Below, piece after piece: positions 17,476 through 20,424 of a DNA stretch of 64,000 nucleotides. Under the pieces are notes generated by a model. The model ran no database searches. It was not told the origin of the DNA and saw only the letters and a program-made list of their open reading frames with translations. Source of the stretch: an uncultured Bdellovibrionales bacterium (GTDB taxonomy: Bacteria; Patescibacteriota; Minisyncoccia; Moranbacterales; UBA1568); assembly GCA_964594215.1 (NCBI GenBank), contig CAZQLN010000004.1, forward strand, positions 862-64,861, in the 5' to 3' direction. The translations under genes and the position numbers were made by a program. Each line of letters opens with the position of its first letter. Position 1 is the stretch's first letter.

Positions 17476-20424
17476 CTACGAGACAACAATACTAATCAGT
17501 TTATTGGGTACCACAATAACTTTCCTGACTGTTTGGCTACCAATAGTTTCTTGCACTTTTTCTCTTGCAAGAGCAAGTTTTTCCACTTCTTCATTTGAAA
17601 GATCAAGTGCACCCTGGAATTGATCACGAATTTTACCATTAATCTGTACCATCAGTGTCACCTCTGCTACCACTACCTTGCTCGGATCAAAAACAGGCCA
17701 AGTCATCTCAAAAAGAGTTCCTTCTCCATCATTTTTTTGCCAAAGCTCTTCAGTAATATGCGGAGCATAGGGAGCTAAGATTCGTAGAAAAAGTTTCAGC
17801 TGTTCCCGAGTTAAGCCATTTTTTTCGATTATATTCACTGCTCCCATAAGCGCCGCTACTCCAGTATTCATCTTAAGAAGACTAATACTTTCCTCTACCT
17901 TGGCTATGGTTTGATGTAGGATTCTTTCTGTCTCATTTTTTTTATCATCAGAAAGTCCCTCATCTACCTTAAAGTGAAGTTTCCATACTCGATCAAGAAA
18001 ACGTCTCACTCCCACAATACTCTCTGGATTCCATGGGTAAGCCCCCACTTCATTATACGGACCAATGAAAGCCAGGTAGACACGAATGGTGTCCGCACCT
18101 AATTCCGCAACCAGTTCATCTGGATCAATCACATTTCCTTTAGATTTGCTCATCTTATTGCCGTCTGGCCCAAGAATAAGACTGCGGTTCATACGCCTGG
18201 TATAGGGCTCCACCTCATTAACGAGCCCTAAATCATAAAGTGCCTTATGAAAAAAACGTGAGTACAGTAAGTGCATAGTGGTATGTTCTGCTCCACCACT
18301 ATACAAATCTACCGGCATCCAGGCAGCTAGTTTGTTTTTATCAGCAAATACTTCTCTATTTGATGGATCACAATAACGCAAGAAATACCAACTACTATCC
18401 ACAAAAGTATCTAGGGTGTCTGTCTCACGACGAGCCGATTTACCACATTTTGGACATACTGTGTTTACAAAATCCTTGTTCTTAGAAAGCGGGCTCTCGC
18501 CGTTGTCATTAGGAAGATAGTCCCTTACGGCCGGTAGTTCTATCGGTAAGTCTTCGTCTGCTACCGGTTGCCAACCACACTTTTCACAGTGAATAAGCGG
18601 GATCGGACAGCCCCAATAACGCTGACGACTCACACCCCAGTCACGAAGACGGTAAGTCTTTGTCATCCTACCATGTACTTTTTCGATAATCTTTCCTTTG
18701 GCGTCATTGCCTGACAGTCCATCAAATTCACCAGACTGTACCAAAATACCGTCTGCACTTACAAGAGCACTCTCCTCTTGTCGCTCAAATAATTCTATGG
18801 CCCATTTAGCCTCTGCTACAGTAAAATAATTCTTGACCGCACTCTTCTCAACCCATACTAGTTCATGTTGAGCACTATCCTCTTCACTGATAGCTATCTG
18901 TTCATCATCAATAAGTTCAAAAAAGGCAAAGCTCCACAAAGCATGGCGGTTAATTTTCTTACCCCGATGATAGAATTTGGTATGTTTCTGGATATTGGGT
19001 GTACCAATAAATTTCACGTTCTTATAGCCCGTTTCTTCGAGGAGCTCCCTCCGCGCTGATTGCTCGATACTCTCACCTTCATCTATACCTCCAGTCACTA
19101 CCCCACGCATATCAAAATTTTTCCAAGATATTGCTAAGTAAGAATCCCGCTTTGGATCATAGAGTGCGATAGCTACATTATTTCTAGCCTCTGTCTTTTC
19201 TTCGGGTCGATAAGCATCATCACGGTTACCTTCCGTCACCACACACTCTTCAATCACCTTCTTAATCGGCAGACTAAACTTCTTAGCAAAAGCGAAGTCG
19301 CGCTCATCATGACCCGGTACCGCCATGATAGCTCCAGTACCATAGCCAGCTAATACATAATCAGCCACGTATAGAGGGATTTCTTCTCCCGTTGCCGGGT
19401 TAATAGCTACTACTCCGCCAAGCAGTACTCCCGTCTTTTCTTTAGCGGTATTAGTACGCTCTATCTCAGTTTTCTTCTTAGCGGCCTCTACGTAAGCTCT
19501 CACTTCCTCTTTATTAGAAAGAACATCATGATCATCCTGCAAAGCCAGAGTTACCCAAAGATGTTCAGGCGCCAAAACCATATAGGTTACCCCATAGAGA
19601 GTGTCTGGTCGCGTAGTAAAAACCGTTAACTGTGCTCGTTCACCATCTGGTCCACGGTTATCATTAGCCTCTACATTATGGGTAAAGCGAAGAAGGAAAT
19701 CTATCTCCGCCCCATCACTTCGGCCTATCCAATTTTTCTGAGCAGTCTTGATTTCTTCAGGCCAATCAAGCCCCTTCAGATCATCTATTAACCTATCAGC
19801 ATAGGCCGTAATTCGTAGTTGCCATTGCTTCATAGTTTTCTTCTCGATCTGAGCCCCACAACGCTCACAAGTGCCATTGATAACCTGTTCATTAGCCAAA
19901 ACTGTTTTGTCAGTCGGACACCAATTGGCAAGGGTTTCTCGCTCCTCGACTAATCCTGCTCTAAAAAGCTGAATAAACAACCACTGAGTCCATCGGTAGT
20001 ATTGGGGATCACAGGTTGCTATGGCACGAGACCAATCAAATATAGCTCCCATAGACTGAAGCTGGGTTTTCATATAGTCCATGTTTTGGTAGGTCCACAC
20101 TCGTGGATCTAAACCTCGCTTGATAGCGGCATTTTCAGCAGGAAGACCAAAGGCATCGAAACCAATGGGATAGAGGACATTCTTACCACGCATTCGCTCA
20201 AAGCGAGCTCGTATGTCGGGCACTGCAAAAGCGTACCAGTGACCAACGTGTAAGTTGCCTGATGGATAGGCAAATTCTACCAACTGATAGAAATTCTCTT
20301 TTCCTTCTACAGTATCTAAAACGACATGCAGGTTGCGCTCAGCCCACAAAGCCTGCCATTTTGGTTCAATAATTTCTGGTTGGTAGAGGTTTTCCATAAA
20401 CAGAGTACCTCTACTATATGCCAA
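17476..20424 (-). CDS. leuS: Leucyl-tRNA synthetase with an inserted NUDIX-like domain. The probable start is MENLYQ, nine codons in.
   Basis: HVGH, editing-domain motifs, [15 protein letters not shown], KMSKS. NUDIX box [23 protein letters not shown] at about aa 444-466. Confidence 0.9.
   Translation of the reverse strand: [982 protein letters not shown]

Follow-up and report, generated by a model that had tools for sequence, protein, structure and literature searches.

Bacterial aminoacyl-tRNA synthetases (aaRSs) rarely bear unrelated catalytic domains. A curated precedent among the class Ia synthetases is an isoleucyl-tRNA synthetase (IleRS) that carries an N-acetyltransferase (NCBIfam NF040702, ileS_w_GNAT). 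The proofreading domain of leucyl-tRNA synthetase (LeuRS) is CP1, an independently folding post-transfer editing domain that swings in catalysis and binds the CCA end of the tRNA (PMC4138327). Synthetases are also a main source of diadenosine tetraphosphate (Ap4A), and Nudix enzymes degrade Ap4A in all domains of life (PMC10148737). Here we describe a leuS gene in which the two kinds of enzyme appear to be combined. It lies in a stretch of 64,000 nucleotides (nt), hereafter the window, from an uncultured bacterium that is labelled Bdellovibrionales in GenBank and placed in Patescibacteriota (Moranbacterales, UBA1568) by GTDB (assembly GCA_964594215.1, contig CAZQLN010000004.1, positions 862 to 64,861 of the forward strand). 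Its product is a canonical bacterial LeuRS with what its sequence indicates is a complete Nudix domain nested inside CP1, an architecture that recurs throughout a large part of Patescibacteria.

The leuS open reading frame (ORF; 17476..20424, minus strand, as are all parts of the gene given below) is uninterrupted and has 982 codons when read from a TTG. Its product scores 950.9 bits against TIGR00396 (leuS_bact, cutoff 548.4), with the match falling into two stretches because of the insert, and it aligns over its whole length to the LeuRS structures of Thermus thermophilus (1h3n, E = 9e-219) and Escherichia coli (E of about 4e-195). The preliminary description of this DNA gave the length of LeuRS as 982 amino acids (aa), which is correct for the ORF read from the TTG, but the protein is probably 973 aa long. 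The nearest database protein (P0001, 99% identity) has that length and homology to solved LeuRS starts at residue 13, so that the ATG at 20397 (codon 10), and not the TTG at 20424, is probably the true start; the 982-residue numbering is kept throughout. The expected motifs are all in place: HVGH, the HIGH-type signature of the synthetic site, at residues 59-62 (20239..20250), the editing motifs TTRPDT at 270-275 (19600..19617), GTG at 362-364 and HDERD at 372-376 (19297..19311), and KMSKS at 757-761 (18142..18156). Between the window LeuRS and 58 relatives no variation is seen in HVGH, KMSKS, TTRPDT, GTG or HDxRD, and the invariance of the three editing motifs argues that canonical CP1 editing is intact. 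At the level of sequence, then, both synthesis and editing are those of an ordinary LeuRS, to whose editing domain the Nudix domain adds while replacing nothing.

The insert occupies aa 392-556 (18757..19251) and consists of an N-terminal linker, the Nudix domain proper and a C-terminal helix. It is delimited as a gap in the alignment to 1h3n, in which residues 13-393 of the window LeuRS correspond to T. thermophilus 3-364 and residues 557 onward to 379 onward, the two proteins being otherwise collinear except for this one large gap; some 150 extra residues stand where T. thermophilus LeuRS has a loop of about 15. In the closest insert-less relatives (P0018, P0032) the same position is taken by a loop of about 12 residues, reading '...PVIENGFDGTSATSVSGALINSG...'. 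The first part of CP1 (aa 230-391; 19252..19737), which contains TTRPDT and HDERD, is matched by the editing-domain model PF13603 from residue 230 to residue 394 (profile positions 1-143 of 185). The second part (aa 557-590; 18655..18756), which carries the second PF13603 stretch, aligns to T. thermophilus LeuRS from residue 379, and is followed by the return to the catalytic core and then by the anticodon-binding and C-terminal domains (17476..18654; PF00133 and PF08264 matches). Because the PF13603 match is interrupted at position 143 of 185 and the sequence after the insert is still CP1, the insert is to be placed, on these alignments, inside the editing domain. The preliminary description had put it after the end of that domain, which has to be corrected; its coordinates, 18760..19251, translate to residues 392-555, and its estimate of about 200 residues for the whole segment agrees with 'IKKVI' ending at 391 and 'YRLRDW' beginning at 591.

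Two trivial origins for such a segment were considered and rejected. An assembly artefact or chimera is ruled out by the continuous ORF, the even composition (GC content 0.422 in the insert vs 0.439 in the remainder of the gene) and the presence of the same architecture in hundreds of independent assemblies. An intein, self-splicing element or other mobile insertion is likewise contradicted, with no Hint/intein or homing-endonuclease Pfam family in the protein, no GC anomaly, and a Nudix domain that is conserved across species.

Profile and motif show, in agreement with structure prediction, that the insert is a complete Nudix domain whose catalytic site is preserved. PF00293 matches aa 414-530 (18835..19185) over profile positions 3-118 of 134 with E = 6.8e-13 and 49.2 bits, compared with a gathering score of 21.1, and the Nudix box at aa 445-467 (19024..19092) fits GX5EX7REUXEEXGU in full, with R459, E460, E463 and E464 as the catalytic residues. 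An AlphaFold2 (AF2) model of aa 392-556, built with 50 homologous inserts, has a mean predicted local distance difference test score (pLDDT) of 96.4 and a predicted template modelling score (pTM) of 0.89, shows strands and helices in the expected order, and has the α/β/α sandwich of the Nudix fold. The preliminary description had proposed just such a domain, with catalytic glutamates, inside LeuRS, and had suggested that it be sought by PF00293 profile, by alignment to reference LeuRS structures and by a survey of related LeuRS; the profile match is significant and the glutamates are present, the alignment places the insert between T. thermophilus residues 364 and 379, and the survey, described below, finds it widely. 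A second AF2 model, of CP1 together with the Nudix domain (aa 225-592, 22 sequences; mean pLDDT 88.9, pTM 0.81), has an ordered N-terminal linker (pLDDT 90-94) through which a CP1 strand continues straight into the Nudix domain. The model suggests that the domain is docked on CP1 in a fixed arrangement and is not loosely tethered.

In a search with the whole LeuRS, nearly all of the 120 best matches carry PF00293. By source name they belong to Candidatus Kaiserbacteria, Adlerbacteria, Paceibacterota, Minisyncoccota and Parcubacteria; Moranbacteria are also among the close LeuRS relatives bearing the insert, and the closest inserts (68-69% identity) come from metagenome-assembled genomes (MAGs) of Candidatus Moranbacteria/Moraniibacteriota, so that the window most likely derives from this group. 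With the insert alone as query, exhaustive HMMER searching gave 342 clusters (at 50% identity) at E <= 1e-3, and when GTDB species, each represented by one genome, were scanned with a single narrow peptide pattern, [LQH]EETGYKN, this Nudix subfamily turned up in at least 250 species genomes. We examined 80 loci from the latter: at 69 the Nudix domain is nested in LeuRS, and at the other 11 it is a separate ORF of 160-220 aa. The architecture is thus, by this sampling of sequences, inherited across a large part of Patescibacteria. The claim that it is not a standard feature of LeuRS holds with respect to model organisms, being absent from E. coli, T. thermophilus and the other reference structures, but within a large part of Patescibacteria it is the norm. 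Several of the Paceibacteria-like LeuRS-Nudix loci (L004, L007, L008, L018, L045 and others) come from records whose MAG or third-party annotation titles name uncultured Gammaproteobacteria, Bdellovibrionales, Bacillota, Methanosarcinales or, in many cases, 'Saccharibacteria'; these taxon labels look unreliable.

Conservation was assessed residue by residue, as the closest distinct relatives are at about 70% protein identity and synonymous sites are saturated. Across 273 aligned copies of the subfamily the box is nearly fixed (G445 99%, G446 98%, E460 99%, E463 96%, E464 100%, G466 98%), with R459 at 82%. A second set of conserved residues is specific to the subfamily and comprises R414 (94%), K489 (93%), N492 (95%), L504 (96%), E516 (88%), H520 (85%) and W524 (96%), together with W434 and R493; an aromatic residue, F or Y, occupies position 484 in 95% of copies, and at position 485 Y (55%) is more frequent than F (38%). 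Of 212 copies nested at the same site as in the window, 191 have an intact core box, and substitutions, mostly of R459, occur in about 10% of these and about 30% of the copies found elsewhere (stand-alone, or at the LeuRS position called site A below). Mean pairwise identity is 34% for the insert, compared with 66% for the N-terminal and 59% for the C-terminal core of the synthetase, a disparity that fits a functional enzyme domain under less constraint than an essential synthetase, and not a decaying relic. Taken at sequence level, this pattern indicates lineage-wide purifying selection on both the catalytic and the subfamily-specific residues.

When all matches are mapped onto the LeuRS core, insertions fall into three regions. 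Site B, the site used in the window and located directly after 'IKKVIE', carries one Nudix domain in about 175 proteins. Where CP1 starts (core residues ~216-250) is site A, which holds a non-Nudix module of 150-200 aa in about 70 proteins and, in some proteins, one or two Nudix copies. Site C, downstream of CP1, is used occasionally. The Nudix copies within one LeuRS are only 29-46% identical to each other but 55-66% identical to copies at the same site in other species, which implies that they are old paralogues, each maintained. Other hydrolases keep them company: by Pfam match, a Ser_hydrolase/α/β-hydrolase module is found in P0009 and P0128, a HAD module in P0029 and a PD-(D/E)XK module (PF13366, PDDEXK_3) in P0037, while Ham1/ITPase precedes the anticodon-binding domain in P0146 and L041, and TatD stands at the N-terminus of the LeuRS of L070. 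The most elaborate examples are the LeuRS of L078 (1735 aa, combining an α/β-hydrolase and a HAD module with three Nudix domains) and that of L079 (1559 aa, with three Nudix domains and a Ser_hydrolase). HAD and Nudix modules are nested as a pair in P0029, L055 and L078. Extra nested modules also occur in a further relative, L038. The Nudix domain would, then, be the most frequent of several small, house-cleaning-type hydrolase modules that this lineage builds into LeuRS.

Stand-alone Nudix proteins with the subfamily's signature residues also exist (for example P0138, P0144 and P0154, and those of L033, L039 and L042). These are free proteins of 160-190 aa with 36-58% identity to nested copies, among which they are interspersed in best-hit analysis. 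The stand-alone gene of L042 (492-974) ends 5 nt upstream of a leuS (980-3217) whose product has no more than a short loop at site B, an arrangement that reads, from its sequence, as a split version of the LeuRS-Nudix fusion. In two Staskawiczbacteria MAGs the stand-alone gene is directly downstream of a HAD hydrolase gene (3385-3978 and 3986-4468 in L033; 3433-3942 and 3956-4444 in L039), which mirrors the HAD and Nudix pairs nested in some LeuRS. The remaining copies have unrelated neighbours, RibD_C, peptidase and acyltransferase genes among them.

The same subfamily is nested in a second synthetase. Protein P0217 is a class II prolyl-tRNA synthetase (ProRS) of the archaeal/eukaryote type (TIGR00408, 585.8 bits) whose profile match is split at position 379 of 475, the Nudix domain being flanked by the anticodon-binding domain and the C-terminal domain of ProRS. 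Five clusters have this architecture (P0217 and P0271-P0274), and one example lies at 2906-4837 in L082. Their Nudix domains score 158-207 bits on a subfamily hidden Markov model (HMM) built here and are 45-49% identical to the LeuRS site-B copies. The full signature is present in P0217 and P0273, the two ProRS copies that were correctly extracted in the alignment, and upon HMM-based realignment R414, K489, N492, R493, E516, H520 and W524 are found in all five. The nearest insert-less ProRS are named Nanoarchaeota or Woesearchaeota, and one of the ProRS-Nudix contigs of assembly GCA_041598975.1 encodes a ribosomal protein that best matches archaeal L18e, weakly (25.6 bits vs a cutoff of 85); a DPANN archaeal origin for these ProRS is probable on such sequence grounds. 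Among the long proteins in the best 150 of the 342 clusters, which are those we inspected, every fusion partner of the subfamily is an aaRS. In L081 the ProRS-Nudix gene (3720-5744) has a MazG gene (8298-8612) in its vicinity, as well as a separate, stand-alone Nudix gene (2590-3012). A ProRS relative, P0358 (716 aa), has a different odd accessory domain, PF03483 (B3_4, of the type found in the β-subunit of phenylalanyl-tRNA synthetase).

We consider it somewhat probable (roughly 0.55) that the nested domain is an autonomous, active Nudix hydrolase docked on CP1 with no part in amino-acid editing. Nested in frame in a short surface loop of CP1, it would provide a self-contained pyrophosphohydrolase site acting on a nucleoside-diphosphate-X metabolite, outside amino-acid proofreading, and nesting would tie both the expression and the location of the hydrolase to an essential, ATP-consuming enzyme. 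The variable position of the Nudix domain in LeuRS and the hydrolases that accompany it there suggest house-cleaning passengers, while its reappearance in ProRS and beside leuS points to a connection with something common to all synthetases. Several observations count against an autonomous hydrolase of this kind. Three Nudix sites in the company of Ham1, HAD, TatD and PDDEXK modules fit a function-neutral passenger equally well, evolution is faster in the insert than in the core of the synthetase (34% vs 59-66% identity), and 10 of the 11 stand-alone copies are away from any aaRS gene. The docking is predicted by AF2 only. To the best solved relative, 2azw, no function is assigned, and it is without the subfamily signature; no NCBIfam equivalog comes near its cutoff with the insert, the best being the RppH/NudH models at 27-29 bits against 116-118 (NF001938, 29.2 vs 116; NF001936, 27.6 vs 118).

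Among candidate substrates our leading guess, a tentative one, is the Ap4A type of adenine dinucleoside polyphosphate. It is suggested by the identity of the sole other fusion partner seen, again an aaRS (ProRS), and by conserved residues that suit a polyphosphate-plus-adenine ligand; the basic R414, K489 and R493 and the aromatic W434, F484/Y485 and W524 would be the ones concerned. The marker of Ap4A hydrolases and RppH we take to be an aromatic residue, Tyr, some 16-18 positions after the Nudix box, and F484/Y485, at +17/+18, are compatible with this marker of dinucleoside polyphosphate (ApnA)-type hydrolases without being specific to it. Fold matches to the insert after 2azw are a mixture of ApnA, ADP-sugar, diphosphoinositol polyphosphate (DIPP), NTP and decapping enzymes. 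The models for other substrates all score below their cutoffs: TIGR00052 (ADP-ribose pyrophosphatase) 25.6 bits vs 79.55, NF008736 (NudE) 21.6 vs 169 and PRK10729 19.2 vs 248 on the ADP-ribose side, and NF008044 (MutT 8-oxo-dGTPase) 13.8 vs 148. The PHROGs phage library gives nothing beyond generic Nudix matches.

It is tempting to go further and to see in the subfamily a dedicated partner of synthetases that class I LeuRS in the candidate phyla radiation (at three sites) and, independently, class II ProRS in DPANN-like archaea would have captured. It would remove a product or lesion specific to aminoacylation, for example dinucleotides of the Ap4A/Ap3A type or a tRNA 3' or 5' end that has been modified. 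We hold this to be rather unlikely, if attractive. Should it be true, the synthetases of ultra-small symbiotic cells would contain an unrecognised layer of nucleotide-directed quality control, of which the accompanying α/β-hydrolase and HAD modules would be further steps in the same pathway.

The most likely alternative overlaps with the autonomous docked hydrolase and departs from it solely in rejecting a connection to aaRS by-products. In it the Nudix domain is purely a passenger, a house-cleaning enzyme for ADP-ribose or for oxidised or non-canonical nucleotides, lodged in CP1 because the loops there are tolerant and the host is essential and constitutive in a minimal genome. The assortment of Ser_hydrolase, HAD, Ham1, PDDEXK_3 and TatD modules in the same LeuRS clade is in line with this, as are the several insertion sites and copy numbers, the rapid evolution of the insert, and stand-alone copies that adjoin HAD, RibD_C, peptidase and acyltransferase genes and not aaRS genes. 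It is less easily reconciled with the one other host found being an aaRS again, of the other structural class and probably from another domain of life, or with the Nudix gene that adjoins leuS in L042. Nor are large class I synthetases carriers in general: the IleRS encoded in the window (994 aa, tRNA-synt_1, Anticodon_1 and DUF5915; 39886..42870, minus strand) has no nested hydrolase, so that the nested hydrolase is LeuRS-specific here and not general to class Ia synthetases. We regard a pure passenger as doubtful.

A direct role in quality control, in which the Nudix domain hydrolyses Leu-AMP or misactivated adenylates or aids pre- or post-transfer editing, is a role that the preliminary description had in mind, beside hydrolysis of Ap4A. 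It draws on the placement of the domain in the editing domain, with AF2 docking it on CP1, on the subfamily being fused only to aaRSs (LeuRS and ProRS) among the matches seen, and on the stand-alone gene beside leuS in L042. Aminoacyl-adenylates, however, are acyl-phosphate anhydrides and not pyrophosphates of the Nudix NDP-X type (motif and chemistry as in PMC10148737), and nothing is missing from the canonical CP1 editing site. Because the Nudix domain occurs at three LeuRS sites and, in ProRS, between the anticodon-binding and C-terminal domains, no common geometry with respect to an active site is preserved, and stand-alone forms are common. Hydrolases unrelated to Nudix (Ser_hydrolase, HAD, Ham1, PDDEXK_3, TatD) share LeuRS with it. 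With the editing motifs invariant and the subfamily at several LeuRS sites, in ProRS and on its own, participation in editing or adenylate hydrolysis is not supported and seems unlikely.

We think it still less probable that the domain is an RNA-end enzyme, removing NAD- or Np4A-type caps or triphosphates from 5' ends, or a toxin-placed 3'-pyrophosphate from the CCA end. RppH, AvrM14, Dcp2, NudC and g5R are among the weak best matches, both fusion hosts bind tRNA, and CP1 itself binds the CCA end (PMC4138327), but these similarities are all at the generic level of the superfamily, far under family cutoffs. No PADLOC defence family matches at E <= 0.01, nor did we identify a conserved RNA-binding extension of positive charge. 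A non-catalytic module that senses a ligand, or that regulates LeuRS as a structural or tRNA-binding element in the manner of NrtR or AraR-type Nudix domains, might account for the copies with core-box substitutions (about 10% at site B, about 30% of stand-alone or site-A copies, mostly at R459), but is very improbable given a perfect box in the window LeuRS and 96-100% conservation of E460, E463 and E464, unexpected for a domain that only binds.

Upstream of leuS the window has ATP synthase genes and, at 20496..20894, a response regulator gene. Directly downstream is an NTP-transferase gene (16780..17472, minus strand), and two genes downstream a HAD hydrolase gene (16145..16849, minus strand) that overlaps the NTP-transferase ORF by about 70 nt and is followed by glmS. 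This HAD gene was considered as a source of the HAD module nested in P0029, and the two are not detectably related (blastp E = 0.08). The subfamily HMM found no second copy of the Nudix subfamily in the 64 kb. Elsewhere in the window, a minus-strand ORF at 2..5221 that runs off the left edge encodes at least 1740 aa of a giant uncharacterised protein with only a marginal Pfam match (DtxR SH3), and a 660-aa product with DUF11/DUF7927/DUF7619 repeats, probably a surface protein, is encoded at 37193..39175 (minus strand), adjoining the IleRS operon. Two structured RNAs, and no others, reach gathering thresholds: a tmRNA (47897..48299, plus strand; RF00023 in Rfam, at 113 bits) and a tRNA-Leu(CAA) (10194..10277, plus strand).

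What these LeuRS contain, then, is a second and, to judge from its residues, apparently active hydrolase site within the proofreading domain of an essential enzyme, in hundreds of Patescibacteria species. If the Nudix domain acts on Ap4A-like by-products or on tRNA ends, it would represent a new coupling of aminoacylation to nucleotide housekeeping. If it is a passenger, LeuRS would be a natural scaffold in minimal genomes, holding up to five nested hydrolase modules in 1735 aa, with a bearing on the economy of gene regulation in ultra-small cells. With its clear boundary, well-defined signature and confidently predicted model, the Nudix domain lends itself to direct tests. There is also a consequence for annotation, in that public records carry automatic names for these LeuRS, 'class I tRNA ligase family protein', 'NUDIX domain-containing protein' and 'alpha/beta fold hydrolase', some leuS genes thus being named after the Nudix or α/β-hydrolase module.

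In open-access PubMed Central and bioRxiv full text we found no description of a Nudix domain nested in LeuRS or ProRS, and a survey of the Nudix clan (PMC5389931) does not mention tRNA or synthetases. The nearest solved structure to the insert, the Enterococcus faecalis MutT/Nudix protein 2azw, shares the canonical box, the α/β/α fold, an N-terminal Arg, the 'FY' that follows the box and a C-terminal Trp. It differs in being free-standing where the window Nudix is nested, in an identity of only 16%, and in being without the signature residues K489/N492/R493 and E516/H520. With Nudix ApnA hydrolases (lupin Ap4A hydrolase 1f3y/1jkn, T. thermophilus Ndx1, which acts on Ap6A, Rv2985 and RppH) the aromatic residue of the insert 17-18 positions after the box is compatible, though not specific; their likeness to the insert is at the generic superfamily level only, with no family HMM at cutoff. 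The substrates of these hydrolases are by-products of aaRSs (PMC10148737). On the synthetase side, the LeuRS of T. thermophilus (1h3n) and E. coli (4aq7) are collinear with the window LeuRS and have all synthetic and editing motifs in common with it, but they have a loop of about 15 residues in place of its 165-residue Nudix module, and the window LeuRS is without the leucine-specific domain, the alignment jumping from T. thermophilus residue 580 to residue 638. The IleRS with an N-acetyltransferase is a precedent for a class Ia synthetase with an unrelated enzyme domain, although both domain (GNAT) and host (IleRS) are different, and the window LeuRS matches that model by its synthetase core only (67.9 bits vs 1999). 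An aaRS with an accessory domain and the Nudix family are known kinds, and what would be new is the nested architecture that joins them and the Nudix subfamily that it contains.

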